DNA of 64,000 bases, taken from assembly GCA_038059935.1 (NCBI GenBank), contig JBBTIN010000016.1, forward strand, positions 46,943 through 110,942. Reading direction: 5' to 3'. This DNA is from Nitrospirota bacterium (GTDB taxonomy: Bacteria; Nitrospirota; Nitrospiria; SBBL01; SBBA01). A model generated the notes under the pieces. That model did not search any database. It was not told where the DNA came from and was given only the letters and a program-made list of their open reading frames with translations. Shown here piece after piece: positions 1-53,289 of this stretch. Both the position numbers and the translations under genes were made by a program. How positions within the stretch are numbered: the stretch's first letter is position 1; every line of letters starts with the position of its first letter.

Positions 1-418
1 ATTTGAGCGTATTTGTGATCGTCTTGAAATGGCGCTGCCCGAAAAAATAAGAGAGGCGAGCAGACGACTTCAGACGATCGGGCGGCTTTTGGGTTCTTAC
101 AATCCGGTGGTTCAAATCGCGCACGCAAAGCAAAGGGCGCGTTTCCTGAATAATCGGCTTGATGCTGTCAGAAGTAAAATTGTGTCAATGCGTCAGGGTG
201 TATTGGAGGGGGTGATCAATCGTCTTGATCTTTTAAGTCCGCTTCGTATTTTAGGTCGGGGTTATAGCATTGTGCAGAAAGTAGGCTCTCTCGTCATGAT
301 TCGGGATAGTGCAGAGGTGGCCATTTCTGAAATGATTGTTGTGAAATTGCATCATGGAGCACTCACCTGCGAAGTGGCAGCTCGGCTGACTCCGAAAACG
401 ACTGCTCCGCAGTCTTAA
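1..418 (+). CDS. xseA: Exodeoxyribonuclease VII large subunit, C-terminal part (5' end outside window)
   Basis: The frame is open from the window edge. The C-terminal sequence is XseA-like (LSPLRILGRGYSIV). The last 7 codons plus stop lie inside repeat R1. Confidence 0.65.
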   Translation, partial: FERICDRLEMALPEKIREASRRLQTIGRLLGSYNPVVQIAHAKQRARFLNNRLDAVRSKIVSMRQGVLEGVINRLDLLSPLRILGRGYSIVQKVGSLVMIRDSAEVAISEMIVVKLHHGALTCEVAARLTPKTTAPQS

Positions 419-437
419 CCCCTTCCGTTGGTCGGGG
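398..437 (-). repeat. R1 palindromic element copy 1 (supplies the xseA stop)
   Basis: The reverse complement reads CCCCGACCAACGGAAGGGGTTAAGACTGCGGAGCAGTCGT, about 90 percent identical to 517-552. Confidence 0.85.
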
Positions 438-503
438 TGTAAACTAACAGATTGGTGGGGATGTCCGTGCCACCAACCTCCCTGTAACTTAAGGGAAAGA
501 TGT

Positions 504-574
504 CCCCTGTCAGACCGACCAACGGGAGGGCTTAAGACTGCGGAGCAGTCGTCCCCGCAGGCGGCCGTGCCGCC
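504..574 (+). repeat. R1 palindromic element copy 2 (supplies the gspE stop and last ~14 codons)
   Basis: Sequence is CCCCTGTCAGACCGACCAACGGGAGGGCTTAAGACTGCGGAGCAGTCGTCCCCGCAGGCGGCCGTGCCGCC. It contains hairpins GACTGC-GGA-GCAGTC and GGCGGC-CGT-GCCGCC. Confidence 0.85.
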
Positions 575-2370: not shown

Positions 2371-2451
2371 GGTTTTAGGCGCCCATCGAGGCGACTCATT
2401 ACGCCGTGGGGGGTGCTACCCCCCTCACTCCCGCCGGGGGGTGCTACCCTC
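2371..2451 (+). repeat. R1 element copy 3 (variant) with duplicated terminal hairpin
   Basis: Sequence starts GGTTTTAGGCGCCCATCGAGGCGACTCATTACGCC, then GGGGGG-TGCTA-CCCCCC (2408-2424), linker TCACTCCCGCC, and a second GGGGGGTGCTACCCTC (2436-2451). The gspD stop lies at 2425-2427, between the two hairpins. Confidence 0.8.
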
Positions 2452-6264: not shown

Positions 6265-7149
6265 TTACTCTTCTGTTGCTGCAGGCCCTTTGACTTGTCT
6301 GCGTTCCTTCTCAAGATGCGTCCAATATTCCTTTGCTTCATCAGAGAAATATTCCTGAAACCCGTAACGGGCATTCTCAACCTCTTTTGCATCGTCCATC
6401 ACTTTGGGTGTCGGGATCGCGTACTCAATATTACAAGAGGTATAGGCCTGTACATAAGTAGGCCCAATCTCACGCGCAATCAAAACCGCCTTCTGAATGG
6501 TGGCAGCAACCCGGGTTGGATTCGTTGGTACAACCCGCGCGATATAGGCCACCCCGGCTGTCTTTGCAAGACCGATCATATCCATCTTCTCAAATTTTTT
6601 CCCGTTGGGGGCCATCTTCAATACCATGCCCTTTTGCGTCATACCGCTTTCTTGACCTCCGGTATTTCCATAGACCTCGTTATCCAACATGACGGTTGTG
6701 AATTTCTCTTTCCGAAACCAACTATGCATCACCATTGAAAATCCAATATCAGCCAAGCCGCCGTCTCCAGCCGCCACAATCACGTCCTTTTGTTTATCTT
6801 GAAAGCGAATTCCAAGACCCCGCTTCAGCCCAGAAGCCACGGCATTGGTATCCCCATAATTTCCATAGATAAATGGAGCAGCCCCTTGCGAAAGCACCAA
6901 CCGGCCACATCCCGCCGTACCCACAAAGATTGTATTTTCCGGAGCAGGAAGGGCAACATACATGGTTCGGATAAAAAGAGTCATGGCACAACCCGCACAC
7001 ATGGGGTGCTCTTCAACCAGCTCTTTAAATGAGCCCATTTCAGAGACCTTCCTGGGCGAGGTAAACTGACTGTCTTTTACTAAGTCGTAATACTCTTGCG
7101 GCAGGTAATTTTCAAACCCTGGCGATACACGAATTGTTTCTACTGACAT
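6265..7149 (-). CDS. 2-oxoacid:ferredoxin oxidoreductase beta subunit (TPP-binding)
   Basis: TPP and Fe-S motifs: CAGCAM, GCGRL, AAGDGGLADIGF, GNTGGQES. Confidence 0.9.
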   Translation of the reverse strand: MSVETIRVSPGFENYLPQEYYDLVKDSQFTSPRKVSEMGSFKELVEEHPMCAGCAMTLFIRTMYVALPAPENTIFVGTAGCGRLVLSQGAAPFIYGNYGDTNAVASGLKRGLGIRFQDKQKDVIVAAGDGGLADIGFSMVMHSWFRKEKFTTVMLDNEVYGNTGGQESGMTQKGMVLKMAPNGKKFEKMDMIGLAKTAGVAYIARVVPTNPTRVAATIQKAVLIAREIGPTYVQAYTSCNIEYAIPTPKVMDDAKEVENARYGFQEYFSDEAKEYWTHLEKERRQVKGPAATEE

Positions 7150-7167
7150 GTGACACCTCCTATGGTT

Positions 7168-8409
7168 TTAATAACTTTGTTTTCCAAAAACATACTCCAA
7201 AATTAACTCGGTTGGCATGGACATCCCACCAAAAACGCGGGGGCCAGAAATAACCCGCTCCGTCCTTGGAATGACATTCTTGACTTCTTTGGCAAGCCAT
7301 CCCGGGTAGTTAAACTCTGGAATAATAATCCGATCGGCATGATCCAATGCCTCAATCAGCTCTTGATTTGGGAAAGGCCGTAAGGACTTCACCTTAACAA
7401 GACCGACATCCCCACCTTGCTCTGTTGCCTGACGAACTGCCTCGCGAGACTGTGAAACGGCGGAACCAGAAGCAACAATCATGGTTTTAGCAGTCGGGTT
7501 AACGACCTCGATCAGTCCACCCAACCATCTTTTTAGCCATTTTCTGGATCGTTCTGCGGCCGCCCACGTTTCCTGCTGCCAAGAGGCATGCATCTGATAA
7601 GAGATAAAATTGGACTTTTGAATCGGGGCATCGCGTGCAATACGAATTGGCGGGTTTTCGCTATCCATCATCGGAACCGCCTCATGATAGCACTCCCGAG
7701 GAGGAAGCTTAATATCAGCCGCCGGCATTCTGACCCATCCGCGCGCGTGCGTCACAAAAAAACCATCTACAGCAACCGCAACGGGAAGCGTGACTTCTGG
7801 TTTCTCCCCCACCATATATCCAATGATTGGATAGTCGTAAAAATCCTGCTGATTTTCCGCGTGAAGCACGATACAGCCGGTGTTCAACATGTAGGAAATC
7901 TCAATATTATCCGGCTGAATAGCCAATGGCGCATTAATCACGCGGCACATAATGAGTAACATTGTAGGAAGCCGTCCGCCGGGCCATGAGGAGATCACCT
8001 CAATCCCACGCATCAGACCCGGTCCCGCCGTAGCGGTTAAAGAACGCACACCCGATCGGGAAGCACCGGCAATGGCAGAAAAGACGCCATATTCTTCTTC
8101 GCCACGATAATAATCTTTGAGATACCCCTCTGCATAAAGATACCCCACCTGCTGCATCGTTTCGCTTTGCGGAGTAATAGGAAAGGAGATCGCGATATCA
8201 ACGTTACATCGGCGAATGGCTTCTTTTGCCGCTTCGCTGCCAGTAATAAAGGACTTCTCTCTTGGCGCCTGCAAAATAAGATAGTCGGGATCAACCACCC
8301 GCTGCGCCGCAGCACCTTTTTTGGCTTCTGCCTTTGGAGGCTCGGCAACTGCTGAAATAACATCCCCCTGCGGATTCGTCTTAACTGCTTCTTCTAATCC
8401 TTCAGACAT
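7168..8409 (-). CDS. 2-oxoacid:ferredoxin oxidoreductase alpha subunit
   Basis: ISFPITPQSE motif, 413 aa, located directly upstream of the beta subunit. Confidence 0.85.
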   Translation of the reverse strand: MSEGLEEAVKTNPQGDVISAVAEPPKAEAKKGAAAQRVVDPDYLILQAPREKSFITGSEAAKEAIRRCNVDIAISFPITPQSETMQQVGYLYAEGYLKDYYRGEEEYGVFSAIAGASRSGVRSLTATAGPGLMRGIEVISSWPGGRLPTMLLIMCRVINAPLAIQPDNIEISYMLNTGCIVLHAENQQDFYDYPIIGYMVGEKPEVTLPVAVAVDGFFVTHARGWVRMPAADIKLPPRECYHEAVPMMDSENPPIRIARDAPIQKSNFISYQMHASWQQETWAAAERSRKWLKRWLGGLIEVVNPTAKTMIVASGSAVSQSREAVRQATEQGGDVGLVKVKSLRPFPNQELIEALDHADRIIIPEFNYPGWLAKEVKNVIPRTERVISGPRVFGGMSMPTELILEYVFGKQSY

Positions 8410-8493
8410 CTTTAATTTCCTTTCTGACTCTCCCCATTATCTACTAATGGAGCCAGCCCCGTGTATCTCTAAAACAAACCGTAGGGCGTTCTC

Positions 8494-8544
8494 TTTCAGG
8501 CGGCCAACGAGCCGACTCAACCCCGCTGGAGGCAGCGCCTCCCC
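8494..8544 (+). repeat. R1 element copy 4 (variant)
   Basis: Sequence TTTCAGGCGGCCAACGAGCCGACTCAACCCCGCTGGAGGCAGCGCCTCC. The terminal hairpin GGAGGC-AGC-GCCTCC ends 2 nt from the stop at 8546. Confidence 0.8.
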
Positions 8545-8545
8545 A

Positions 8546-9289
8546 CTATTCTTCGTTTTCGTCTAAGCCTTTTTCAAGATCATGACTTAATCCATGACCA
8601 TGAGACGCTTCTTCTTGTGGACGCTCAATATCTAATCCGTGGAGATGGGTCTGCTGTGCCCAACCGGAAGGGATAATGCTATGTCCCTCATAAAGAGGCT
8701 TGATCCCATTTTTCTTTACGCGCCGAAGGGCTTCCGCAAACTTGGCCAATTTCTCAACCCCCACGTTAGGGATGGAAGCCATGGCATCTTCGTGACCCGC
8801 CTCCGCACAAAGGGCGATCGTATAGCAATTTGTACCCGCTCGAATCATTTTTAACGTCACATTGGCAAAATGGCAATGAACCCCAACAAGGATGCAGGCC
8901 TCAATTTTATTATGCCAAATGGTTAAGTTAGGATGACAAGGGTTAATCACCGCTTCGGGATCAATCTTAGGGTAAATAGGGCGATAGTCAGGCATTGGAA
9001 TGATCCGAACACCGGGGATTTCATGGGCAATCTCAAAAAACGGATTGGCCTTTTCCCGTGTATGCTCAGTCCATCCCCAGATCATGAGTGGCCCTGGAAA
9101 TAAGGTTGGATTTTTTCGGGTGAGCAGCGCAATAGCGGCCGCTTCCATCGAGGCATCTTCGGAGACAATCTGTCCTTCTAACAGCCCCTCTCCTTCTTCC
9201 GGCAGCACAACCCCCATCATAGCCGCCGACGGAGGCAATAACCCCCACGGCCCCGGCGACACCGCATAAGCAGATTTCGTAACAGACAT
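8546..9289 (-). CDS. Putative fifth (epsilon-like) subunit of five-subunit 2-oxoacid:ferredoxin oxidoreductase
   Basis: A 247-aa ORF with a GGAGG RBS, first gene of the operon. Size and position match the extra subunit of Hydrogenobacter/Nitrospira-type five-subunit OFORs. No motif was verified. Confidence 0.5.
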   Translation of the reverse strand: MSVTKSAYAVSPGPWGLLPPSAAMMGVVLPEEGEGLLEGQIVSEDASMEAAAIALLTRKNPTLFPGPLMIWGWTEHTREKANPFFEIAHEIPGVRIIPMPDYRPIYPKIDPEAVINPCHPNLTIWHNKIEACILVGVHCHFANVTLKMIRAGTNCYTIALCAEAGHEDAMASIPNVGVEKLAKFAEALRRVKKNGIKPLYEGHSIIPSGWAQQTHLHGLDIERPQEEASHGHGLSHDLEKGLDENEE

Positions 9290-9371: not shown

Positions 9372-9504
9372 CTGGGCATTGTCAGTGACAACGAGAAAAG
9401 CGTATGGGTTTAGAACCGATCACGCAGCAGAAGCCACTTTATATCAAACACTTATTAGGGCTTTACCCGACCAAAGGTAACCCACGAATTCTTCTGACGA
9501 GATT

Positions 9505-10628
9505 TTAACCCAGATTGCGCGATAGGAATAAAAGGGTTAGATTGATGGGTAAGATTCTAATGCGTAGCAATAGAGATAGGAGGGGATGCGGTTTTTTAGC
9601 AAATTCAAGCAAAGTACGAATCACAACGTGAGCGAATATTTTTATTCTTGGATTTTCAATCATGTCCAATTTAACAATTTTACTTTAGACTTTGACTCTT
9701 CAGTCATGACGCGGTACGGCGCCCAAGAAGGTGCTAAAAAAGGCTATAATCCAGTGAAAAAGGGACGGCCTTCACATCATCCGTTGATTGCTTTTATTGG
9801 CGATGTAAAATTAGTGGCGAATATGTGGCTTCTTCGTTCCGATACGTCTTCGGCGAATAACTTTCTCTCTTTTTTAGAGGACACTTTGTCGAAATTGAAG
9901 GGCAAAGTGGTGAGTTTAATTCGTTTGGACAGCGGTTTTTTTCAGTCGAGTATTTTAGATTATCTAGAAGCAAAATCGTTAGAATATGTGGTTGCTGCTA
10001 AGTTTACACACCCGATTCAACGACTGATCGGCGGACAAGGCGTCTGGATTGTGCTAGATCAAGGGATTGAGATTTGTGAACGAGAGTATCAAAGTGCCTT
10101 GTGGTCGAAAGCAAGACGAATGGTCATTGTCCGGCAACAGATTAAAGAGCGGCCGAAAGCGCCTGGTAAACAATTGCGTTTGTTTTCGGACGATGAGATT
10201 CACAAGAACTACCGATATTCTGCCTATGTGACCAATCTGAAATTAGCGCCTGCGGAAGTGTGGCGGATTTATCGAGGTCGCGGGGACGCCGAAAACAGAA
10301 TCAAAGAATTAAAGTACGATTTTGGTTTTGACAGTTTTAATCTGAAAGGTTTTTATGCGACGGAAGCGGCACTGACGTTTGTCATGATTGCGTATAATTT
10401 GATGGCATTATTTCGAATGTTTCTGTTGCAGGAAAAAACACAAAAAACCTTATCCACGCTCCGATACAGAACATTTGCGATTGGGGCTTACTTTCAAAAA
10501 GTAGGGGATACCTTGATCCTGAAAATTGCGCTCACTAAAAAAAGAAGGGCGTGGTTTACTGGTCTTTGGAACGATTCAGACTCTTTCGAATACCCCTTCC
10601 AATTCTCTACTGCGTAATCTGGGTTTAA
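9505..10628 (+). mobile_element. IS element (IS4/IS1380-superfamily-like), probably 5'-deleted
   Basis: Imperfect terminal inverted repeats: TTAACCCAGATTGCGC (9505-9520) versus the reverse complement of 10611-10628, TTAAACCCAGATTACGCA. They enclose a single DDE transposase ORF. Confidence 0.6.
9586..10617 (+). CDS. DDE transposase (IS4/IS1380-like), N-terminally short
   Basis: Motifs LDFDSSV...GAQEGAKKGYNPVKKGRPSHHPL, IRLDSGFF and YRGRGDAENRIKELK. The first Asp lies only ~36 aa from the start, which suggests about 90 aa are missing. Confidence 0.85.
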   Translation: MRFFSKFKQSTNHNVSEYFYSWIFNHVQFNNFTLDFDSSVMTRYGAQEGAKKGYNPVKKGRPSHHPLIAFIGDVKLVANMWLLRSDTSSANNFLSFLEDTLSKLKGKVVSLIRLDSGFFQSSILDYLEAKSLEYVVAAKFTHPIQRLIGGQGVWIVLDQGIEICEREYQSALWSKARRMVIVRQQIKERPKAPGKQLRLFSDDEIHKNYRYSAYVTNLKLAPAEVWRIYRGRGDAENRIKELKYDFGFDSFNLKGFYATEAALTFVMIAYNLMALFRMFLLQEKTQKTLSTLRYRTFAIGAYFQKVGDTLILKIALTKKRRAWFTGLWNDSDSFEYPFQFSTA

Positions 10629-13402: not shown

Positions 13403-13974
13403 GTGTGTAAAAGTTAAAAGAGGGCGGCATATACTTTCGGGTTGAAGAAACCATCAAACCCGGCAGACCGGGAGAAAGGACACGCCACCATAAGATCATG
13501 AATGTGCTGGATCGGTTTCCGAAGCGGCTGCGTGGAGAGGCTGCGGAATTATTGGGAAAGATTCCGTATGCCAGGACCCAGCGGGAATGCGAAGCGATGC
13601 GGGATGGTTTTATAGATCGGTACCGCGGGACCCAGGCGAAGGCCTGTGAAGTGTTAATGCGGGATTGGGAGCGGATGGTGACGTTTTATTTGTTTCCAAA
13701 GGAGCACTGGGTACACATTCGGACGACGAATGTAGTGGAGTCGCCGTTTCATGGGAGTCGGTTGAGGACGAATGCGATAAAGCGATACAAGCGGGTGGAG
13801 AATGCGACGGCGATGATCTGGAAGCTTTTAAAGGTTGCCGAGAAACGATTTCGGACATTGAAGGGGGTTGAGAAGTTAAAAAGTGTTTATGAAGGGAACC
13901 TGTATCGAGACGGAGAAGAAATAACAACGGTTCAATCTGAAAGGATGGCCGCCTGATGAAAAACTTTTACACAC
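13403..13974 (+). mobile_element. Internally deleted IS256-family element retaining both ends
   Basis: GTGTGTAAAAGTT (13403-13415) and its exact reverse complement AACTTTTACACAC (13962-13974) bracket a transposase 3' fragment. Confidence 0.65.
13498..13956 (+). pseudogene. IS256-family (mutator-type) transposase, C-terminal third only
   Basis: Sequence FPKEHWVHIRTTNVVESPFHGSRLRT...ENATAMIWKLLKVAEKRFRTLKG is typical of the IS256 C-terminus. The N-terminal DDE region is absent. Confidence 0.8.
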
Positions 13975-14026
13975 CTATTGACATGAGCTCCAGACGCCGA
14001 CTGCAGGTCAGTGCGCAAACTTTTTC

Positions 14027-14065
14027 ATCATCAAAACTGAAAAGACGTTGGGAATCTTTTTCATG
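14027..14065. repeat. 39-bp direct repeat, copy A
   Basis: ATCATCAAAACTGAAAAGACGTTGGGAATCTTTTTCATG, 37/39 identical to 14587-14625. Confidence 0.85.
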
Positions 14066-14411: not shown

Positions 14412-14586
14412 TTTGAGGCATAGGCCTATTCTACCACAAACCGAGAACCAACCCCAATTTTACTACTTCTTAAAGTATTTAAGGTCGCTGCTAGCACTTC
14501 TTCACCGCGCAGTTTCATACGGACATCTGCTACCCAACAATGTTTTTAAGCGATAAGGCAAGTATAGCAGAGATAGAGACTTTTAA

Positions 14587-14625
14587 ATCATCAAAACTGA
14601 AAAGACGCCGGGAATCTTTTTCATG
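14587..14625. repeat. 39-bp direct repeat, copy B (2 nt from thiD stop)
   Basis: ATCATCAAAACTGAAAAGACGCCGGGAATCTTTTTCATG. It contains a weak GAAAAGA/TCTTTTTC hairpin. Confidence 0.85.
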
Positions 14626-14627: not shown

Positions 14628-15467
14628 TTAACAGGCTCCTTCAATCACATCTTTATCCTGCCTTCCCTCAAACAAGGATCGGTTCCAAAAATGATGCACC
14701 GGCCCAACACCCTTTCCAATCTCCAACCCATACCGAATCGCCTCCGTCATATACCGCTTGGCCAAGAAAACGGCATCCACAAGGTTTTCCCCGTGCGCCA
14801 AATGCGCGGCAATCGCAGACGCATACGTACACCCCGTTCCATGCGTGTGACGCGTGTCAATATACGCCCCAGAAATCACCGTAAAATCGTTTCCGTCAAA
14901 AAGAATATCGGTGCCACGATCTTCCTCTAAGTGCCCTCCCTTGACCAAAACGGCCTTCGGTCCCAATTGAAAAATAATCTTCGCCGCACGTCTCGCATCT
15001 TCAAGTGTCCTAACGGGATGACCCGTCAATTGTTCCGCCTCCATGCAATTGGGCGTAACAAGCCGGGCAATCGGTAGGAGTTCTTTTTTTACAGATACAA
15101 TTGCGTCCGGCTGAAGAAGCAGCTTGCCCGATTTTGAAACCATCACCGGGTCAACAACCAGATTCTTTGCACCGTATTGTCTCAATCGTTTGGCAACACA
15201 TTCGACAATCTCGCGAGAGGAGAGCATCCCGATCTTCACCGCAGCAATATCAAAATCGGAAAACAACAAATCTATTTGTTCTTCAATCAGGGAGATTGGT
15301 AAATCATAAACTGCTGTCATGGTTTGGGTATTCTGCGCGGCCATCGCAGTCATGACGGACAACCCAAAGACGCCATGCGCCGCAAACGTCTTGATGTCGG
15401 CCTGAATGCCCGCCCCACCAGAAGGATCAAATCCCGCAATCGTTAAGACTTGTTTTTGAGAGGCCAT
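14628..15467 (-). CDS. thiD: Hydroxymethylpyrimidine/phosphomethylpyrimidine kinase
   Basis: VLTIAGFDPSGGAGIQADIKT, and THGTGCT near the C-terminus. Confidence 0.9.
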   Translation of the reverse strand: MASQKQVLTIAGFDPSGGAGIQADIKTFAAHGVFGLSVMTAMAAQNTQTMTAVYDLPISLIEEQIDLLFSDFDIAAVKIGMLSSREIVECVAKRLRQYGAKNLVVDPVMVSKSGKLLLQPDAIVSVKKELLPIARLVTPNCMEAEQLTGHPVRTLEDARRAAKIIFQLGPKAVLVKGGHLEEDRGTDILFDGNDFTVISGAYIDTRHTHGTGCTYASAIAAHLAHGENLVDAVFLAKRYMTEAIRYGLEIGKGVGPVHHFWNRSLFEGRQDKDVIEGAC

Positions 15468-15472
15468 CTTTA

Positions 15473-15506
15473 CAACCCCCTACCCCCCTTTGATAAGGGG
15501 GAATTT
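15473..15506 (+). repeat. R3 palindromic element
   Basis: CAACCCCCTACCCCCC-TTTGATA-AGGGGGAATTT in the moaA-thiD gap. Confidence 0.75.
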
Positions 15507-17092: not shown

Positions 17093-17124
17093 TATACTTA
17101 GTGTCTGAACGGAAACTAAGTATA
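17093..17124. repeat. Perfect 10-bp stem hairpin TATACTTAGT-N12-ACTAAGTATA
   Basis: Seen directly. It is the first module of the repeat mosaic between mcp and cheW. Confidence 0.7.
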
Positions 17125-17126
17125 CT

Positions 17127-17165
17127 AACCACCCCTAGCCCCTCCTTAACTAAGGAGGGGAATTT
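17127..17165 (+). repeat. R3 palindromic element
   Basis: AACCACCCCTAGCCCCTCC-TTAACTA-AGGAGGGGAATTT. Confidence 0.75.
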
Positions 17166-17189
17166 CCAAGTGCACATGCACCCATCTTT

Positions 17190-17239
17190 CTCGACCGACC
17201 AACGGGAAGTCTGACTCCTGCTGGAGGCCGGTGCCTCCC
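17190..17239 (+). repeat. R1 element copy 5
   Basis: CTCGACCGACCAACGGGAAGTCTGACTCCTGCTGGAGGCCGGTGCCTCC, with terminal hairpin GGAGGC-CGGT-GCCTCC. Confidence 0.85.
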
Positions 17240-17260
17240 AATCTCTCAGGCAACCGCGCC

Positions 17261-17315
17261 GCCCTGTCAGACCGACCAACGGGAGGGCTCACTCCCGCCG
17301 GCGGCCGGTGCCGCC
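17261..17315 (+). repeat. R1 element copy 6 (overlaps the mcp stop codon by 1 nt)
   Basis: GCCCTGTCAGACCGACCAACGGGAGGGCTCACTCCCGCCGGCGGCCGGTGCCGCC, with terminal hairpin GGCGGC-CGGT-GCCGCC. Confidence 0.85.
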
Positions 17316-19360
17316 TAGATTTTGAAGGCGTCCACTTCCGATTTTAAACTAGAAACGGTTCTCTGGAGTTCTTCCTGTGCATGACGAAGCTTATCAGAGA
17401 GTTTTTTATTCGCCTCAACCGCTTCGTGCGCCTCCGTAATGCGTTCTGTTAAATTCTGAGCCTCTTTTTTCTGGTCACCAATTCCTTGCCCGATTTGCAC
17501 AATACCTGCCGTAATTTCTTCAATCGCAGCGGCCGTTTGCTTGCTTCCCACCGCCTGTTCTTCCGTCGCCACCTTCACCTGCCGTGTAATCAAACGAACC
17601 TTTTCAGATCCCTCGGTAATATGTTCAATCACCTTTCCTTGCTCTTGCATCGCGCTATTGACCTGATGCACCATTGTATTCATTTTGTCCATGGACAAAG
17701 TCACGGAGTGAATGACCTGCACCTGCGCCAACGTAGACTTCTCAATCTGACGCGACATGAGCGAGGAACGATTCGCCCCTTCCAAAATTGTGCTTAAGGA
17801 ACCCCTTGCATCCAAAGAAAGCCGCACCCCTTCCTCCACGCTTCGTCCCCCCTCTCGAATCGAATTGATCGCGTCTTGGGCCTCCGATTGTAAATCTCGA
17901 ATTAGCTGCGCAATCTCCTTTGTGGAAGAACCGGTTCGGTCGGCGAGACTTTTAATCTCATCCGCCACGACAGCAAAACCTCTTCCGTGCTCGCCCGCCT
18001 GTGCCGCCAAGATCGCGGCATTCAACGCCAGCAAATTCGTCTGCCGCGTCACCTCGTCAATCACGGTTAAAATCTTCCCGATATACTCCGTGCGTTCGCC
18101 TAATTTATAAATCACAGAAGAAGACTTTTCGACTGCCTTCTGAATATTGTTCATTCCCTCAATCGTCTTCTCAATTGCGCCACGTCCCAGCTCATCCGCG
18201 TCACGACTCACCTTTTCCGTCAAAAGTGCGGACTCTTTCGCTGTCGTCTCAATCTCGTTGATCGAATTATTCATGCGGCTGCAAGACGCCGTGGTGTCGG
18301 ACATGTGATCGGTCAGCGCGTTAATATGTTCCACAACTTGACGAATTGAACTGGACATCTCCAACAACGCCGATGCCGTATCTTCCACATACGAAGAGAG
18401 GTTGGAGGTGCTATTGGCCACTTGAATCGTCGCTGCACTCATCTGCACCAACGCGGGAGAGGTGGTCTGCGCAATCCCCGAAAGCTCGTCTATTCTCACG
18501 ACCACCCTCATGAAAGAAGCATTCATCCCCTCAAGACAGACCAAAGTCTTTTTCGCACCCTGCGTTTGATTACCACTGCCTTCCCCGATACGCGCAATAG
18601 ACTCCGAAAAGCCATCCATCAAGGCATTCACTTGAGAAACGCCTTCTTGCACCCGATGAATCATCCCCCGCAGGTTTGAAACCATTGGGGCCAGCCCATG
18701 CCCCTGATTGAACTCCGACTCGGAAAAATCACCGCGTCCAACACGGGAAGCAGCATCATTCATTCTTTCCAAAGGTTCAACCAAATCCCGCGTAAAAAGA
18801 ATCGTAGCCCAAACAACGCCGCCCATCAGCACAACCAGCAAAAAGGCCATCTTCTTGAGAAGATCAGACCGCTCTTTTATGATCTCTGAAAGCGAGATGC
18901 CCAGTCGAACCGATCCCACCGACTCTTGTGATTTTCCGCGCAAACGCACTGGCGCGACCAAGTCAAGACGGTCCCCAAAGACCGTCGTCACAGATTCACG
19001 TGCCGATGCATCCCAAATCATACCGCCCAGAAGAAGACGCGCCTTTTGTTCATTGGTATTGGCAAGCAATTCCCCCTCCCGATCAAAGACCAATAGGTAA
19101 AGCACGTCTTTGGATTCGGACAATTTCTGAACCTCTTCCGAAAGTAACGGCAGGTTGCCCGTTTCAATTCCCACCGCGCTTTTTTCGGCTATGCTGTTGA
19201 CGATTCTTGTCCAGTTTTCCAGAAGCGCTTCTTGACGGCTCTTGCTAAAATGAGAGATAAAGACCCCGCCTAAAATCAGACCGGATATTAAAATCGCGGC
19301 ACTCACAAACACGATAATTTTATTTCTTACTTGATGCCCCATTTCTGTTCTCTCTCCCAT
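17315..19360 (-). CDS. Methyl-accepting chemotaxis protein
   Basis: N-terminal TM plus sensor region, a second TM and HAMP-like region, and the conserved signalling hairpin [31 protein letters not shown]. Confidence 0.9.
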
Positions 19361-23532: not shown

Positions 23533-23539
23533 TTAATCC

Positions 23540-23815
23540 TTATTGTCGGGGCAGGTTTGAAACCTGCCCCGACACGATCTCGTACCGATATTTTTCAATC
23601 ACCGTATTCGCCAGCAGCTTTTCACACATTTGTTTGACCGACTCCTCTGCTGCCGCAATCGCCTGCTCCGATAATTCTACTTCAAAATATTTGCCTGCAC
23701 GAACGTCTTTGGCATCATTAAATCCCAAAGAAGACAACGCCTGTAAAATGGCGACCCCCTGCGGATCATGGATACTGTCTTTGAGTGTAACATAAACTTT
23801 TGCTTTCACAAACAC
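23540..23815 (-). CDS. purS: Phosphoribosylformylglycinamidine synthase subunit PurS
   Basis: KAKVYVTLKDSIHDPQGVAILQALSSLGF. GTG start at 23815 or 23809. The C-terminal ~10 aa are encoded by the R2 palindrome. Confidence 0.8.
   Translation of the reverse strand: MFVKAKVYVTLKDSIHDPQGVAILQALSSLGFNDAKDVRAGKYFEVELSEQAIAAAEESVKQMCEKLLANTVIEKYRYEIVSGQVSNLPRQ
23545..23573. repeat. R2 palindrome GTCGGGGCAGG-TTTGAAA-CCTGCCCCGAC
   Basis: Perfect 11-bp stem. It overlaps the last codons of purS. Confidence 0.8.
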
Positions 23816-23832
23816 CTCCGCCTAAAACCCAT

Positions 23833-23865
23833 CCCCACCTAACCTCCCCTTGAAGGGGAGGGAAT
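23833..23865 (+). repeat. R3 palindromic element
   Basis: CCCCACCTAACCTCCCC-TTGAA-GGGGAGGGAAT in the purB-purS gap. Confidence 0.75.
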
Positions 23866-25549: not shown

Positions 25550-25566
25550 GTTTCTTGTTCCTGTTT

Positions 25567-25595
25567 GTATGGGCAGTTTTGAAACCTGCCCATAC
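25567..25595. repeat. R2 palindrome variant GTATGGGCAG-TTTTGAAAC-CTGCCCATAC
   Basis: Same loop as 23545-23573, with a different but still complementary stem. Confidence 0.75.
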
Positions 25596-25620: not shown

Positions 25621-25675
25621 TTGTTTTCAGGCGCCACAACGTGGCGACTCATCACGCCAGGGGGGCTACCCCCCC
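25621..25675 (+). repeat. R1 element copy 7 (variant; overlaps the ribH stop and last 7 codons)
   Basis: TTGTTTTCAGGCGCCACAACGTGGCGACTCATCACGCCAGGGGGGCTACCCCCCC, with hairpins CGCCAC-AAC-GTGGCG and GGGGGG-CTA-CCCCCC. Confidence 0.8.
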
Positions 25676-26182
25676 ATGTTTCTTGTTCAATCCTTGATAG
25701 AGCTGGGCCATCTCAATTGCCGAAAGCGCCGCGTCGGCTCCTTTATTCATTTTTCCACCTGATCGCATCATGGCCTGTTTGACCGTCTCTGTTGTTAATA
25801 CGCCAAAAATCACCGGCAAACCAAACAAAATCGCGACCTGTCCAATCCCGCGTGCCACCTCGGCGCAAATATAATCAAAATGGGGTGTATCTCCCCGAAT
25901 CACGGCACCCAAACAAACGATTGTATGATAGCATCCGCACTGTGCCATTTGGGCCGCTACCCCTGGAATTTCAAACGCACCGGGAACCTCCACCACTTCA
26001 ATACGACTAGAAGGCACCCCCTCTTTTTCAAATACAGCCAACGCGCCCGTCAAAAGCCGTTCTGTAATCTTCGAATTAAATCGGCTTACAACAATCCCAA
26101 ATTGAAGTGCTTTGATGTTTGGCTCTTTCCCCCATTTTATTGGAGGGGTCAAGGGTTTTTTTTCTGCGCGACCGGCATTCAT
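25652..26182 (-). CDS. ribH: 6,7-dimethyl-8-ribityllumazine synthase
   Basis: FGIVVSRFN ... [20 protein letters not shown] overlap with ribBA. Confidence 0.9.
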
Positions 26183-27381
26183 ACGTTACCGAGGAGATGT
26201 CCCATCTTTTTTTTCTTCACCTGTAAATAGTGAATATTTTTCTCGTGCGGGGCGATTTCAATCGGAACGCGTTCAACCACTTCCAGACCATACCCCTCGA
26301 TGCCAACAATTTTTCTGGGGTTGTTCGTCAAAAGACGAATTTTATGCACCCCCAAATCGGCCAAAATCTGCGCCCCAATCCCGTAATCTCTCAAATCGGC
26401 CTTAAATCCCAGTGACAAATTGGCCTCCACCGTGTCCTGTCCATCTTCTTGCAGCGCATACGCCTTGATTTTATTGACCAGCCCGATTCCGCGTCCTTCC
26501 TGATTCAGATAAAGCAAAACCCCTTTTCCCGCCTGCTCAATCTGGCGCATGGCCGATTGCAATTGATCCCCGCAATCACAGCGTTTTGAACCAAAAATAT
26601 CTCCTGTGACGCAGCCGGAGTGCACCCGAACCAGTGTCTCATCTCCCGGTTCGATAACCCCTTTTACAAGGGCAATGTGGGACTCATGATCCACCGCGTT
26701 TTGATAAACAATGGCGTGAAACTCGCCACAATCGGTTGGCAATGCCGCCTCGGCAACACGCGAAACCAGTGACTCTTGCCGCATGCGATATGCGATTAAA
26801 TCTTGAATGGTCACGACCTTCAAATCATGTTTTTTACCAAACTCAAGCAATTTAGGTACGCGCGCCATTGAGCCGTCTTCACTCATAATTTCACAGATCA
26901 CACCAGATGGATGGAGCCCCGCAAGGATGGCCAAGTCCACCGAACCTTCCGTTTGTCCAGCCCGTTTTAAGACCCCCCCTTTTTTTGCCTGAATGGGAAA
27001 AATATGTCCGGGACGCGCCAAATCGGAATGTTTTGTATTCGGATCAATTGCCATCAAAATTGTTTTAGCCCTGTCAGCCGATGAGATGCCGGTCGTGACC
27101 CCTTTCTTCGCGTCAATGGAAACGGTAAAGGCTGTGCCAAAGGAAGCCGTATTCTCGGAAACCATTGGCGTCAGAAAAAGATCGCGGCATCGCTCTTCGG
27201 TCAAAGCCAGACAGATCAGTCCGCGACCATGCATGGCCATAAAATTGATGATGTCTGGGGTCACCGATTCAGCGGCAATGACCAAATCCCCTTCATTTTC
27301 ACGGTCTTCGTCATCAATAAGGATAACCATTTTCCCTTGTTTGATGTCGGAAATGGCTTCAAGTATGGTATGAAATTTCAT
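26179..27381 (-). CDS. ribBA: Bifunctional 3,4-dihydroxy-2-butanone-4-phosphate synthase / GTP cyclohydrolase II
   Basis: [11 protein letters not shown] (RibB) and RCDCGDQL (RibA). Start set to ATG 27381 ([10 protein letters not shown]), because the ORF-track start at 27396 is a TTG. Confidence 0.92.
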
Positions 27382-27405
27382 TTGATTTTTGCCCAAAGCG
27401 GGTCA

Positions 27406-27435: not shown

Positions 27436-27436
27436 A

Positions 27437-27492
27437 CCCCCGCCGCCGGGCGGGAGCGGATGGGACAACTTCCCGTTGGTCGTTGTAAAACC
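27437..27492 (-). repeat. R1 element copy 8
   Basis: The reverse complement reads TGGTTTTACAACGACCAACGGGAAGTTGTCCCATCCGCTCCCGCCCGGCGGCGGGGG, with terminal hairpin CCCGCC-CGGC-GGCGGG. Confidence 0.8.
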
Positions 27493-27526
27493 ACGCCATT
27501 TTGCGCCCGCAAACGGGCGATGCCCC

Positions 27527-29203
27527 TTACGACATGCGACGAATCGTCGTCAGATCCAGCGAGAAAAGATCGCGGATATCGGAAAGTTGCAACGCCATCA
27601 TTGCAAGACGATCCAGCCCCAATCCCCATGCAATCACCGGCACATGGACGCCAAGCGGCTCGGTCACTTCGGGACGAAAAAGCCCCGCACCGCCTAACTC
27701 CATCCAACCCAACGTCGGATGCTTCACATGCATCTCCACCGAAGGCTCCGTAAAAGGAAAATAGGCCGGCAGGAATTTAACCTCTTTCGCTTTCGCAATC
27801 TCCTTTGCGAAAAGCGTGAGGAGTCCTAACAAAGTTCTAAAGTGAACATCCTCTCCGAGAACAATCCCTTCCACTTGAAAGAAATCGGGCGCATGGGTTG
27901 CGTCTACCGCGTCATAACGAAAACAGCGGGCAATCGAAAAATATTTTCCGGGAATACTTGGTAATGCCGCCAATGTCCGGGCGGAAATCGCCGTCCCTTG
28001 ACTTCTTAGAATCAAACGGCGCGTCCGTTGTGAATCAAACTGATACCCCCACCCTCCTGCGGGGGCAGCGTGCCCTGCGGGGGCAGCGTGCCCTGCGGAG
28101 GGGGGCGGAACGACTGCTTCGCAGGCTATCCCCGCCGCTCCCGTTGGTTGCGGTGAAATAACAGATGTCGTTTTGTTGGATTGAACGCCTGTTTCGTGTG
28201 CCGCCGCAACACGACTGACAAGCGCCTCTGGAATGGTTTCGTCATACAAAGGCCCTTTCACGAAATAGACATCATGAATCTCCCGCGCTGGATGAAACTG
28301 CGGCATATACAGCGCATCCATATTCCAAAACTCCGACTCAATAATAGGCCCGTCCATCTCCGAAAACCCCATGGCAACAAGCTTTTCACGCACCGTACCG
28401 AGAAACGCCTGATACGGATGACGCCGCCCAAAGGTCATTCGAGAGGGCGGAAGATCAATGTTGTATTTACGAAACCGCTTGCCGCGCCAACTCCCATCCT
28501 TCAGCATCTCCGAGGTTAGAAGACTAATTTCGTCGGATGGATCAGAAGCCGCCATGGCCTCATAAACAGGCCGAAATCGTTCTGTTGGAATAAAGCTTCT
28601 AAGAACGCGTTCATCCACGCGAAAAATCCCTTTTGATTTTCCACGTTTGCGATGATAGGACAAAACAATCTCCCGATCCGCAGGTGAGAGCGCACAAAGC
28701 GCGATCTCCTGATGGGCTTGATCCAGAAAATCAATCGCGCATTGAAGCTGGAAGAATTCGGTTAATTTTGATGGGTCTATGCGTTCAACAATGCCACCCG
28801 AAATAAGATGCAACGCGCCGCTTTTTTTTAACGCGCCAATCGCGGAACTTCTCTCTTCCGGCTCCAATGCCAATCCCAAGTCAGAAAGCAAAATGGGGCC
28901 GCGCCGTGCCGACTCGTCCGCAATTTGCAGAAACGGATTTTTCTCTGTTGCGTAGATCTTCCCAAGCGCCGTTAGCGAAACCCATTCTTCTTTTGTTTCA
29001 GTTGCAATCGCAAGAATATTTTTTTTCTGGAGCCATTCAACCGCCATTGAAAGTTGTGAGGATAGTAATGTGGGATCGCCTTCTAATAATGTTTGTTCAG
29101 ATAAAGCGATTTGTGCTTTGAAGCGGGCTAATATTTTTCGCTCCAGTGGATGAAGCGATTCCGCCAATTTTAATATTTCTTCATCAGATGTATTGTTCAT
29201 CAC
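27527..29203 (-). CDS. pheS: Phenylalanine--tRNA ligase alpha subunit, archaeal/eukaryal-length type
   Basis: 558 aa, versus ~340 aa for the bacterial type. Motifs FWNMDALYMPQFHPARE, GWGYQF, YFPFTEPSVE and AWGLGLDRLAM. The start could be GTG 29203 or ATG 29200. Confidence 0.85.
   Translation of the reverse strand: MMNNTSDEEILKLAESLHPLERKILARFKAQIALSEQTLLEGDPTLLSSQLSMAVEWLQKKNILAIATETKEEWVSLTALGKIYATEKNPFLQIADESARRGPILLSDLGLALEPEERSSAIGALKKSGALHLISGGIVERIDPSKLTEFFQLQCAIDFLDQAHQEIALCALSPADREIVLSYHRKRGKSKGIFRVDERVLRSFIPTERFRPVYEAMAASDPSDEISLLTSEMLKDGSWRGKRFRKYNIDLPPSRMTFGRRHPYQAFLGTVREKLVAMGFSEMDGPIIESEFWNMDALYMPQFHPAREIHDVYFVKGPLYDETIPEALVSRVAAAHETGVQSNKTTSVISPQPTGAAGIACEAVVPPPSAGHAAPAGHAAPAGGWGYQFDSQRTRRLILRSQGTAISARTLAALPSIPGKYFSIARCFRYDAVDATHAPDFFQVEGIVLGEDVHFRTLLGLLTLFAKEIAKAKEVKFLPAYFPFTEPSVEMHVKHPTLGWMELGGAGLFRPEVTEPLGVHVPVIAWGLGLDRLAMMALQLSDIRDLFSLDLTTIRRMS
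28047..28160 (-). repeat. R1 element copy 9, in frame inside pheS, with 18-bp tandem duplication
   Basis: The minus strand reads CACCGCAACCAACGGGAGCGGCGGGGATAGCCTGCGAAGCAGTCGTTCCGCCCCCCTCCGCAGGGCACGCTGCCCCCGCAGGGCACGCTGCCCCCGCAGG. CTGCGAAGCAGTCGT is 14/15 identical to copy 2. The 18-bp unit at 28057-28074 is repeated at 28075-28092. Confidence 0.7.
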
Positions 29204-50844: not shown

Positions 50845-50934
50845 GGTTTTACAGCGACCAACGGAAGCTGTCACACTCGCCCCACCGCGCAGGTGGCACC
50901 CCACCGCGCAGGTGGCACCCCACCGCGCAGGTGG
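50845..50934 (+). repeat. R1 element copy 10 with terminal hairpin amplified three times
   Basis: GGTTTTACAGCGACCAACGGAAGCTGTCACACTCG followed by the 19-bp unit CCCCACCGCGCAGGTGGCA at 50880, 50899 and 50918. The element ends 2 nt from the stop at 50936. Confidence 0.9.
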
Positions 50935-50935
50935 T

Positions 50936-52378: not shown

Positions 52379-52448
52379 GGTTTTACGGCGACCAACGGGA
52401 CAACGTGCCCTGCGAGGAGCTGTCACACCCGCCCCACCGCGCAGGTGG
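52379..52448 (+). repeat. R1 element copy 11
   Basis: GGTTTTACGGCGACCAACGGGACAACGTGCCCTGCGAGGAGCTGTCACACCCGCCCCACCGCGCAGGTGG. It ends 1 nt from the coaE stop codon. Confidence 0.9.
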
Positions 52449-53237: not shown

Positions 53238-53289
53238 GTCGTTCCACAGCGACCAGCGGGAGCTGTCAATCTCGGGCACACTAGCCCCC
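53238..53289 (+). repeat. R1 element copy 12 (degenerate, no clear terminal hairpin)
   Basis: GTCGTTCCACAGCGACCAGCGGGAGCTGTCAATCTCGGGCAC, with stem ACAGC/GCTGT. It ends next to the stop at 53290. Confidence 0.6.

Follow-up and report, generated by a model that had tools for sequence, protein, structure and literature searches.

The dispersed repeats in the 64-kb stretch of Nitrospirota DNA analysed here (hereafter the window) probably form a family of small (~50-115 nt), non-autonomous, structured elements which behave like REP/BIME and RPE repeats and belong to one groundwater Nitrospirota lineage. The most telling evidence for their mobility, absent from the preliminary description of this DNA, is an in-frame copy within pheS together with the presence or absence of copies at the same site in relatives.

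Architecture and distribution of the repeat

All 12 copies previously listed for the window are real (Table 1), and seven further copies were found in contigs of related groundwater Nitrospirota (19 in total). The parts follow in a constant order in all copies: a T-rich lead (GGTTTTAC), stem-loop 1 with a stem of 4-8 bp, a linker with the consensus TCAyyCyCGCC, and one to three GC-rich terminal hairpins (5-6 bp, loops of 3-5 nt). The loop of stem-loop 1 is conserved (GACCAACGGGA), with CAACG as minimal core. Allowing one mismatch at most, the core CGACCAACGG occurred 15 times in the window compared to 3.5 expected occurrences, and none of 100 shuffled sequences contained as many. A covariance model (R1) comprising lead, stem-loop 1 and linker was run with filters off and recovered exactly nine of the listed copies, termed type I, with scores of 22-45 bits; the next match scored 11 bits. 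The other three copies (2371, 8494 and 25621) represent a type II variant with a short loop (CATCGA, CAACGA or AAC) and the stem GGCGsC/GsCGAC, while their leads, linkers and terminal hairpin types are those of type I. The copy originally placed at 398-437 is genuine but reaches 444, where its lead GTTTACA sits. The copy at 53238 had been called degenerate, which applies to its terminal hairpin only, since its stem-loop 1 is intact (41 bits).

Table 1. Copies of the two-hairpin repeat in the window, with their parts and their position relative to genes.
Copy	Position	Strand	R1 score (bits)	Composition	Relation to genes and stop codons
c1	398..444	-	41.9	Lead GTTTACA; stem ACCCC/GGGGT; loop GACCAACGGAA; extra hairpin GACTGC-GGA-GCAGTC; no linker or terminal hairpin	xseA stop (416-418) supplied by TTAAG of c1; xseA tail TTAPQS-stop element-coded
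c2	504..574	+	41.2	Stem-loop 1; extra hairpin; terminal hairpin GGCGGC-CGT-GCCGCC	Inverted relative to c1, head-to-head, ~60 nt apart; gspE enters 14 codons; stop is TTA of TTAAG (532-534)
c3	2371..2451	+		Type II; lead GGTTTTAG; stem GCGCC/GGCG; loop CATCGA; linker ACTCATTACGCC; G6/C6 hairpin; second linker TCACTCCCGCC; second hairpin	gspD stop is TCA of second linker (2425-2427)
c4	8494..8544	+	10.7 (weak)	Type II; stem GCGGC/GCCG; loop CAACGA; linker ACTCAACCCCGC; hairpin GGAGGC-AGC-GCCTCC	Stop CTA of OFOR CO_dh-like subunit 3 nt beyond (8546-8548)
c5	17186..17239	+	24.2	First of direct tandem pair with c6; core 17196-17205; hairpin GGAGGC-CGGT-GCCTCC (17223-17238)	Nearest stop 76 nt away, behind c6
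c6	17261..17315	+	42.2	Lead variant GCCCTGTC; stem-loop 1 (17269-17289) AGACC / loop GACCAACGGGA / GGGCT; linker CACTCCCGCC (17290-17299); terminal hairpin GGCGGC-CGGT-GCCGCC (17300-17315)	Final hairpin base is first base of mcp stop CTA (17315-17317); distance -1
c7	25621..25675	+		Type II; lead TTGTTTTCA; stem GCGCCAC/GTGGCG; loop AAC; linker ACTCATCACGCC; hairpin GGGGGG-CTA-CCCCCC	ribH enters 7 codons (tail GGVAPLA-stop); stop is linker TCA (25652-25654)
c8	27437..27492	-	32.8		Exception: sense orientation, no antisense stop nearby; lead 34 nt 3' of pheS stop; hairpin end ~40 nt 5' of ribBA
c9	28047..28160	-	38.9	Stem-loop 1; extra hairpin; two 18-nt tandem hairpins	114 nt = 38 codons, in-frame and sense within pheS (27527-29203); encodes ...ISPQPTGAAGIACEAVVPPPSAGHAAPAGHAAPAGGWG
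c10	50845..50934	+	45.1	Lead GGTTTTAC; stem ACAGC/GCTGT; linker CACACTCGCC; three 19-nt tandem hairpins CCACC-GCGCA-GGTGG	DUF4139 stop TTA 1 nt beyond (50936-50938)
c11	52379..52448	+	22.3 (over 53 nt)	Stem ACGGC/GCTGT (one G.T pair); 18-nt loop insertion; hairpin CCACC-GCGCA-GGTGG	coaE stop TTA directly after (52449-52451)
c12	53238..53289	+	41.1	Stem ACAGC/GCTGT; loop GACCAGCGGGA; terminal hairpin degenerate	Stop TTA of DnaJ-like gene directly after (53290-53292)

Copy density was 12 per 64 kb in the window and 0-3 per locus of ~8-22 kb in the relatives, and ~9 kb of flanking source DNA contained no new copies. Identical sequence was present in an independent assembly (L083, 100% over 5,339 nt), and the sequence of c7 was identical in two (L037 and L038).

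The over-representation of a short invariant core might also be expected if the 11-nt core were a DNA-level signal, i.e. an uptake sequence or a site for a nucleoid or topology protein, with the hairpins being incidental. Neisseria uptake sequences likewise make inverted pairs behind genes, and the window encodes a secretin as well as GspE-type and PilT-type ATPases. However, outside the full structured element the core was found only as chance matches in coding sequence, type II copies retain the structure while their core is reduced to CAACG, and known uptake sequences occur at a far higher density. The covariation of the stem described below indicates that the conserved item is the hairpin itself, and we regard a DNA-level signal as highly improbable.

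Covariation of the stems

Fourteen stem types were found for stem-loop 1. In an arm-swap test on 18 copies, cognate arms paired at 0.91 compared to 0.53 for swapped arms, a result reached in none of 50,000 permutations. An alignment of eight copies had 90% of its cells paired and three of five pairs changed on both sides; its covariation score was 0.643 versus 0.165 after shuffling (0 of 500 shuffles), with slid controls at <=0.17. The stem covariation reported in the preliminary description is real, and its reading of the sequence as a dispersed, structured and modular repeat is supported. The conserved apical loop and the compensated changes in the stem imply recognition as a folded single strand.

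Terminal hairpins were of four types, which were found nowhere outside the elements. Their stems differ between copies with pairing kept, as had been noted, and the changes are compensatory (e.g. GGAGGC/GCCTCC versus GGCGGC/GCCGCC). The tandem amplification described earlier was also recovered, with three 19-nt units at 50880-50936, two 18-nt units at 28063-28093, and a hairpin repeated together with its linker at 2408-2451.

When fold energies of 17 copies were calculated, the gene-sense strand was at least as stable as the element strand in 11 (means of -27.0 versus -25.0 kcal/mol), a comparison which is not decisive. G.T wobbles had at first suggested folding of the element strand, an idea which was dropped since the gene-sense strand is slightly more stable overall. 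A pairing between loop (CGGGAG) and linker (CTCCCG) was dropped as well; only some copies have it, while the loop is invariant.

Position of the repeat at stop codons

Nine of the 12 copies in the window had been described as docked onto the stop codon of an antisense gene. This count was borne out, with five copies docked by their hairpin end and four containing the stop, and the names of all nine genes were confirmed by Pfam/NCBIfam. In the former group the hairpin ends +3, -1, +1, 0 and 0 nt from the stop. The chance of a placement between -1 and +4 is ~0.02 (0.021), which gives P = 2.9e-6 for the window. In the latter group the stop lies at -21, -43, -27 and -24; here the stop has been replaced, so that the gene reads on into the element. 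Translation continues a few codons into the element up to the displaced stop, at the cost of a tail of 6-14 residues. Loss of the stop by point mutation is unsupported for these read-into copies because the junction codons are more than one change from a stop. The tail TTAPQS-stop is common to two unrelated proteins.

Four of the seven copies in relatives are likewise close to an antisense stop, at 0-4 nt; the genes concerned are nuoD, argS, that of DAHP synthase, and one without a name in L009. Altogether, 13 of the 19 copies are located at or on a stop codon. Docked stops were TAA or TAG only (TGA in 0 of 9; P ~0.05). No copy was found at intermediate distance in longer spacers, an absence not obviously caused by selection alone. 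Antisense stops are built into two of three frames in nine of 17 copies, as TGA in the linker and TAA in the extra module or lead, and the sense strand is entirely stop-free in nine of 17.

GC-rich hairpins directly 3' of ORFs, several of them at operon ends or between convergent genes, would also be expected if they were the transcription terminators of this genome, perhaps of a kind lacking a U-tract, whose shared sequence stems from convergent or duplicated terminators. Yet no U-tract is present on either strand, in line with the earlier statement that these are not classical terminators, and the number of terminator-like sites in the window corresponds to the shuffled expectation (26 versus 24.5 +/- 5.6). 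Of the element hairpins, only that of c6 was flagged, with the signal on the element's own strand and thus antisense to the gene. Moreover, several copies (c3, c11) are internal to operons, with the next start codon following after 25-40 nt, copies c2, c3, c7 and c9 are translated, and separate hairpin repeats hold terminator positions (e.g. 17135-17160). Terminators are therefore a very unlikely explanation. The related idea that terminal hairpins are pre-existing terminators which attracted the element was rejected, since these hairpin types never occur alone and empty sites lack such a hairpin.

Empty sites and in-gene copies

Comparison with orthologues indicates that the element is, or recently was, mobile, as copies have been gained or lost site by site after divergence of related species. 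Element-free orthologues of GspE, GspD and DUF4139 end at the same residue. A DUF4139 orthologue with 83% identity has the same end residue and no element behind the stop (empty sites in L041 and L042). The gspD-gspE spacer comprises 9 nt in a relative versus 138 nt in the window, where GspD ends in GLVNVP plus EGSTPRRE-stop compared to GLINPPK-stop in the relative. Similarly, GspE ends in RVTHDEL plus AARPPAGTTAPQS-stop in the window versus RVTHDEI-stop in relatives; at least 17 relatives end in THDE(I/L/M/V)-stop or similar, without the 13-residue tail.

Copy c9 (28047-28160) is not intergenic but located in-frame inside pheS. The profile match of PheS is interrupted by this copy and falls into two parts, and in an alignment with 17 homologues the window protein has 38 extra residues, an insert absent from most homologues. 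One and the same PheS loop has received the element in both orientations, sense in the window and in L039 and antisense in L085, which points to two independent insertions. A further in-frame copy splits the ApbE domain in L084. As with RPE repeats, in-frame copies occur in conserved proteins (PheS twice, ApbE), and copies in tolerant protein loops persist when the frame is kept.

These data also bear on the possibility that the element is primarily a cis-acting RNA module, selected for a role at mRNA 3' ends, and not selfish DNA. Its loop would be bound by an RNase or RNA-binding protein specific to this lineage, the GC hairpin would set the 3' end or couple to termination, and copies would be retained at stops as their place of action. 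A conserved loop on a covarying stem is the signature of a protein-recognised hairpin. Strict orientation with respect to the upstream gene at distances of 0-4 nt and a gene-sense strand that folds at least as well (11/17 copies) would fit too, and REPs near stops affect translation and mRNA stability (PMC12306157, PMC6006769). On the other hand, the genes concerned have no function in common (xseA, gsp, OFOR, mcp, ribH, coaE, dnaJ-like, nuoD, argS), the same sites are element-free in close relatives, the internal copies in pheS and apbE, which occur in both orientations, cannot serve as 3'-UTR modules, and c8 is oppositely oriented. We consider an RNA module unlikely as an alternative to a mobile repeat; it can be reconciled with an element that arose as mobile DNA and was co-opted later.

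Relation to known repeat families

REPs are imperfect palindromes of ~20-65 nt, typically present in more than 100 copies per genome, and RAYT genes (Y1 HUH, PF01797) are usually flanked by them. The choice of REP/BIME as comparison in the preliminary description is supported, with stop proximity, in-frame copies and the lack of terminal inverted repeats and target-site duplications in common. In spacers of convergent or unidirectional ORFs, most REPs are located <20 bp from the point where the upstream ORF ends; REPs can also supply TAG stops and have been found in frame within coding sequences, tRNA synthetase genes among them (Di Nocera et al. 2013, PMC3733652). Repeats that lengthen gene 3' ends have been reviewed (Delihas 2011, PMC3184786), and REPs <=15 nt from a stop stall ribosomes according to a passage of PMC12306157 which cites Liang et al. 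2015. The view that stop-codon docking to this degree is undescribed is not supported, REPs near stops or supplying them being already published (PMC3733652).

Like REP/BIME, the elements are short GC-rich hairpins dispersed behind ORFs in unidirectional and convergent gene pairs, often <20 bp from the upstream ORF and at times supplying its stop, with occasional in-frame intragenic copies. Sub-families vary in stem, loop and tail, there are occasional inverted dimers (c1/c2), tandem clusters and mosaic builds, and terminal inverted repeats and target-site duplications are lacking (PMC3733652, PMC6006769). In REPs the unit is one palindrome or a series of alternating inverted REPs, whereas the unit here joins two different hairpins in a fixed, polar order; it is a composite of at least two different hairpins, though GC-rich palindromes of REP type are present. 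Its best-conserved part is the apical loop instead of stem or tag, and docking is tighter (0-4 nt) and in a single orientation.

In-frame insertion into surface-tolerant parts of essential proteins (PheS, ApbE), adding 20-40 residues, is shared with RPE, BRE, BOX and RUP repeats, and retention across speciation with RPE and other in-frame repeats. Modularity, with tandem internal units in varying number, recalls the A-B(n)-C structure of pneumococcal BOX (PMC3184786, PMC3733652). In contrast to RPE, the elements belong to a different phylum and are presumably unrelated in sequence, and most copies are stop-docked and not intragenic. We think it likely that the two-hairpin repeat is a previously undescribed, lineage-restricted REP/BIME/RPE-like family, without GTAG/CGTC tag, terminal inverted repeats or a match in Rfam.

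The comparison with Rfam suggested earlier gave no match at gathering score; the three matches at E <= 5 were all elsewhere in the window and none on elements. A scan with lead and core of a collection of species representatives, the source genome not being among them, yielded 31 matches versus ~17 by chance, of which only that in L009, a Nitrospirota MAG, was genuine. Two scans of viral contigs returned 38 loci scoring by construction only, the best inspected ones being coding (e.g. a glycoside-hydrolase-like ORF in L002), and gave no sign of a phage carrier; a plasmid BLAST gave no match. Five matches were obtained in a metagenome scan, four of them ordinary coding sequence. The match in L034 (65% GC) is a possible copy, located in an open frame.

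Mobilising enzyme, target and possible mode of spread

No Y1/RAYT gene was present among the window genes or among the Pfam hits of genes called in the related loci other than L009, within ~190 kb of lineage DNA in all. The GTAG/CGTC guide of REPs is absent 5' of the hairpin foot, which is preceded by a conserved CGCC/CGC on the element strand. On the opposite strand, NTAR precedes the foot only at gene stops; elsewhere ACT, CCA, CAT, TTG, AAA and TAC were found. The two ends of the element are unrelated, without terminal inverted repeats, and target-site duplications are not visible, as in 17 copies the 12-nt flanks share no direct repeat beyond a T-rich dinucleotide.

MITEs are the commonest short non-autonomous elements, and a DDE transposase gene (PF13701/PF01609) is located ~1 kb from c4, so that the repeat might be a MITE derived from and moved by a DDE IS such as that at 9504-10628. 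This IS, the only intact one in the ~190 kb, and an IS256 fragment are the only transposase loci of the window. However, neither inverted repeats nor a target-site duplication are visible, the ends of the element (GGTTTTAC... and ...GC hairpin) are mutually unrelated, and the IS carries its own 22-nt inverted ends, TTTAACCCAGATTGCGCGATAG, dissimilar to the element. A MITE is therefore extremely unlikely.

The ends of IS200/IS605 elements and their non-autonomous derivatives are comparable in being strand-specific and structure-dependent and in lacking terminal inverted repeats and target-site duplications (PMC6006769). A 3-5-nt target on one strand, as used by IS200/IS605, would explain the polar docking. 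Unlike IS200/IS605, the element has no matched pair of left-end and right-end hairpins, TnpA was not seen, and the target triplet is marginal. In all three independent intragenic insertions, the docking strand has a translationally meaningless TGA 1-3 nt ahead of the hairpin (null 0.18). A T-R-R target was conceived post hoc and is marginal (3 of 5 informative copies, P ~0.04); the triplet is missing at the four read-into copies and at c5 and c8. Docked stops are TAA or TAG only but the intragenic triplets are all TGA, which is a poor fit to a single target.

By analogy to REPs, the mobile repeat may be spread in trans by a hairpin-recognising enzyme, probably a single-strand transposase of the HUH/Y1 type. 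Insertion would be strand-specific and beside a short, stop-like T-R-R triplet. In a 92%-coding genome, purifying selection would then eliminate nearly all copies save those behind true stops. A docked element would form the 3'-terminal part of the transcript of the upstream gene, where the GC hairpin at the stop probably shields the mRNA from 3' exonucleases or modulates termination, as described for E. coli REPs. It is rather doubtful that the element actively homes to stops, i.e. that its machinery reads T-R-R or the termination context and sets the GC hairpin 0-4 nt behind. If it did, gene ends would be a designed safe harbour with the built-in antisense stops as fail-safe, and target selection would follow a rule that has not been described for bacterial transposons, with the CAACG loop perhaps being read by a new enzyme.

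Implications

The element is an unusually clean case for studying how REP-like repeats come to sit on stops. Since docking is tight, in one orientation and recent enough for empty sites in relatives, targeting versus selection is testable, and existing time-series metagenomes from the Hainich aquifer are suited to this. The conserved loop with its covarying stems is a concrete ligand for tracing the enzyme or RNA-binding protein involved. In the annotation of Nitrospirota MAGs, the elements can be misread, giving spurious C-terminal tails (TTAPQS-stop) and enlarging essential proteins, PheS for instance. Assemblies seem to break at them as well, since the Logan contig L038 starts inside c8.

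Architecture and structure of the repeat

The core of the R1 element, CGACCAACGG, is strongly over-represented in the window (15 matches with one mismatch allowed; 3.5 expected). Read on the core-bearing strand, every copy shows the same polar layout: a lead rich in T (consensus (TT)GGTTTTAC), stem-loop 1 (stem of 4-8 bp, loop GACCAACGG(G/A)A(A), extended in one copy by an 18-nt insertion), then the linker TCAyyCyCGCC and one to three GC-rich terminal hairpins. In three copies an extra hairpin, (T)TAAGACTGCGGAGCAGTCGT, is found between stem-loop 1 and linker. When a covariance model built from lead, stem-loop 1 and linker was run with filters off, it retrieved nine of the 12 copies listed in the preliminary description, which scored 22-45 bits; no other hit exceeded 11 bits. 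The other three (2371, 8494 and 25621) represent a second type with the loop reduced to CAACGA, CATCGA or AAC and the stem GGCGsC/GsCGAC; in lead, linker and terminal hairpins they do not differ from the other nine. As both types of stem-loop 1 combine freely with the hairpin types, the element is a mosaic.

When eight copies were placed in register, 90% of the stem-loop 1 cells were paired, and both sides changed in three of five pairs (C-G/G-C/U-A, A-U/C-G and G-C/C-G/A-U). The covariation score was 0.643, compared to 0.165 ± 0.074 for shuffled data (0/500) and 0.17 or less in a control with the partner slid. The arm-swap test, which depends less on alignment, gave 4.45 (cognate) versus 2.86 (swapped) Watson-Crick pairs of five for 11 copies (0/20,000) and 0.91 versus 0.53 for all 18 copies with 14 distinct stem types (0/50,000); like the covariation counts, these overstate independence, several copies being related by descent. 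Plainly unlike stems all pair, among them ACAGC/GCTGT, ACAAC/GTTGT, ACCCC/GGGGT, ACCGC/GCGGT, TCGC/GCGA, AAACC/GGTTT, CAGCCC/GGGCTG, CCGCCCC/GGGGCGG and GCGGC/GCCG. Terminal hairpins of the window are of four types (CCACC..GGTGG, GGmGGC..GCCkCC, G6..C6 and GGGCA..TGCCC), which are confined to elements and never free-standing. Compensatory differences also occur within one type, as in GGAGGC/GCCTCC (c5) versus GGCGGC/GCCGCC (adjacent c6). Covariation of the small stem and pairing of divergent terminal stems, both proposed earlier, were thus borne out. The G-rich gene-sense strand folds slightly more stably on average, a difference not decisive for the folding strand.

Docking on stop codons

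Genes were mapped from ORFs, with a Pfam/NCBIfam check for every gene of about 110 residues or more. In five copies the distance between the last paired hairpin base and the stop of an opposite-strand gene is -1, 0, 0, +1 and +3 nt; four others are read into by the opposite gene, whose stop lies within the element. Since a random non-coding position in random orientation falls at -1 to +4 nt with a chance of 0.021, five of 12 copies correspond to P = 2.9e-6, in support of the docking at antisense stops originally noted. The three non-docked copies are c5 (in tandem behind c6), c8 (34 nt behind the pheS stop, in reversed orientation relative to docked copies) and c9 (inside pheS).

In every case checkable against orthologues, the hairpin end and the native stop are no more than one codon apart. 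If the native stop was lost, translation ends at a stop on the antisense strand of the element, TGA (linker TCA) or TAA (TTAAG). The element-encoded C-terminal hexapeptide TTAPQS common to the convergent genes xseA and gspE is a by-product of these stops.

Related Nitrospirota (about 130 kb; PheS, GspE and DUF4139 at 67-83% identity) yielded seven further copies, four of them docked. Their hairpins are TCCGCC/GGCGGA (contig L009) and, at nuoD on contig L039, GCCAC/GTGGC, directly followed by antisense stops CTA and TTA, respectively; GGAGGC/GCTTCC at a DAHP synthase gene on L039 (CTA 3 nt on); and CCACC..GGTGG at argS on contig L041 (CTA 4 nt on). Single sites also differ in occupancy. The DUF4139 protein ends in VKYRVRVKHP in the window and in VKYRVRVKHG in its 83% identical orthologue, and only the window has an element behind the gene, starting 1 nt past the stop. 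GspE ends in RVT(H/Q)(D/E)E(I/L/M/V) or close variants (RVTHEDF, RVTQEEIF) in 17 of 17 relatives inspected versus RVTHDEL-AARPPAGTTAPQS in the window, the extra tail being the antisense translation of the element. GspD of a relative ends in GLINPPK with gspE following 9 nt on; in the window it ends in GLVNVP-EGSTPRRE, and the element fills a 138-nt gspD-gspE spacer.

Copies inside genes

Copy c9 (114 nt, 38 codons) is inserted in-frame and in sense orientation within pheS, which encodes a long archaeal-type enzyme. It splits the NCBIfam equivalog match in two, and in an alignment with 17 homologues the extra residues lie between two conserved motifs, HE.GG and GS.GWGY. Its tandem hairpin unit measures 18 nt, a multiple of three, whereas that of the tandem outside genes at 50880 is 19 nt long. 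At this PheS site, a shorter version is present in the closest relative (81%) and a degenerate remnant in a 67% relative. A copy in opposite orientation at the pheS site of a relative (locus L085) must be an independent insertion. Yet another copy, at locus L084, interrupts a gene within its ApbE domain. In its N-terminal half, another PheS homologue (P0004, 69% identity) has a different extra segment, ATCPAGATSPAG, at another position, and its C-terminus is extended by GASAPRS. PAG recurs as a motif, much as in translated GC-hairpin repeats (cf. PAGHAAPAG of the window PheS), and the segment may be another element-derived insert.

Comparison with known repeats

No Rfam family matches the element even at E <= 5, consistent with the initial failure to recognise it. 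A terminator scan of the window led us to reject an intrinsic terminator, a reading already disfavoured in the preliminary description. Neither terminal inverted repeats nor target-site duplications were found in the element copies, and the window's DDE insertion sequence has unrelated ends. Genome, metagenome, viral and plasmid collections contained only chance coding matches outside this lineage. A possible copy in a far more GC-rich organism (L034:648-683(-); JGI contig Ga0116229_10258812, 65% G+C) has the lead and the core and, behind them, GCGAAGCAGT, similar to the extra-hairpin module; its score is just 20.8 bits, and it is located in an open frame of 687 nt.

The element behaves as REP/BIME and RPE elements do. 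REPs are mostly located behind ORFs, commonly <20 bp from the 3' end, GTAG REPs often provide a TAG stop, and in-frame REPs occur within ORFs including those of tRNA synthetases (Di Nocera et al., PMC3733652). A passage in PMC12306157, citing Liang et al., states that E. coli REPs <=15 nt from the stop stall ribosomes, and repeats extending the 3' ends of genes were reviewed by Delihas (PMC3184786). Given these precedents, docking is not new in kind, contrary to the preliminary description, whose observations were confirmed and extended but whose interpretation was only partly right. The defining feature of the REP superfamilies is a guide, GTAG or CGTC, at the foot of the hairpin (PMC6006769). 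The element has neither and falls outside them; its architecture also differs from that of REPs, in that two unlike hairpins form a fixed polar pair and conservation is highest in an apical loop. It represents a new family of REP-like structured repeats, restricted to one lineage and unusually strict in its docking on stop codons. No Y1 transposase gene is encoded in the window and related loci, which represent a small part of each genome.

Targeting versus selection

Structure, gain and loss at single sites, polar docking and built-in antisense stops of the element are established. We propose that it would move as a folded single strand via an enzyme reading stem-loop 1 and insert beside a short stop-like triplet on one strand, and that selection in a tightly packed genome would leave mainly copies behind real stops. 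A TGA without translational meaning precedes the hairpin by 1-3 nt on the docking strand in all three independent intragenic insertions (null 0.18), and in three of the five copies at which a stop has no bearing on translation (P ~0.04, post hoc). This intragenic TGA is the sole evidence for a DNA-level target, against which it counts that docked stops are TAA or TAG only (TGA 0/9, P ~0.05). By analogy, the hairpin may plausibly also act at the RNA level, by protecting 3' ends or modulating termination. The element is mainly of value as a tractable case for telling targeting from selection.

Source and assembly support

The window (47-50% G+C, ~92% coding) derives from a Nitrospirota MAG from well H32 of the Hainich groundwater observatory. 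Its RibH and DUF4139 proteins are identical on contigs of the Hainich project, and its GspE on contigs of the same sequencing run and MAG; one of these contigs measures 116 kb. As an independent Logan assembly is 100% identical across 5,339 nt including three copies, and c7 is present in two further assemblies, the elements are not assembly artefacts. Contig L038 (position 1-60), from a short-read assembly of the same organism, starts within c8, and contig L043 terminates in a partial core-like match (5936-5948). Because such assemblies break at the element, copy numbers in MAGs are probably underestimated.

Neighbouring features

Positions of seven R1 copies and other features in the window
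Feature	Position	Remarks
R1 copy c4	8494-8544 (+)	between first two genes of oxidoreductase cluster, within presumed operon
R1 copy c5	17186-17239 (+)	
R1 copy c6	17261-17315 (+)	
R1 copy c7	25621-25675 (+)	
R1 copy c8	27437-27492 (-)	occupies spacer 27397-27526 upstream of ribBA
R1 copy c9	28047-28160 (-)	
R1 copy c10	50845-50934 (+)	three 19-nt hairpins
Oxidoreductase cluster	5069-9289	five genes: CO_dh-like extra subunit, POR_N, TPP_enzyme_C, POR gamma, 4Fe-4S protein
Insertion sequence	9504-10628	22-nt inverted ends; DDE transposase (PF13701/PF01609)
DDE transposase ORF	9586-10617	match starts at profile position 112; possibly truncated
IS256-family (Mutator) transposase	13498-13956	C-terminal fragment
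47-nt direct repeat (91%)	14019-14065, 14579-14625	near IS256-family fragment
Second dispersed repeat	15465-15501, 35606-35655, 40980-41026	ATGGATGGAACATCTTTACAACACCCCCCTCyCCCCC..GGGGGG; intergenic, adjoining gene starts
Short pieces	near 35669-35701, 35767-35802	also 89-94% identity to relative (L039)
Hairpin CCCCTCCTTAACTAAGGAGGGG	17124-17163	between c5/c6 pair and cheW
Similar AT-looped hairpins	5395-5430 and 23825-23860; 23537-23569 and 25559-25591	
ribBA	26179-27396	
MazF/PemK-type toxin gene	59465-59803	preceded by small overlapping ORF
Small ORF	59788-60039	likely the antitoxin

Even permissive Rfam thresholds revealed no FMN riboswitch in the window, the region upstream of ribBA included. 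The 2-oxoacid:ferredoxin oxidoreductase cluster is of a kind typical of reverse-TCA Nitrospirota. Two copies of the second dispersed repeat are 97% identical over 36 nt, and the repeat ends in a C-run/G-run hairpin. The separate hairpin near cheW recurs at an unrelated locus of a relative (L039:19138-19176) with 92.5% conservation over 40 nt; this hairpin and the similar AT-looped ones may be real terminators of this lineage.
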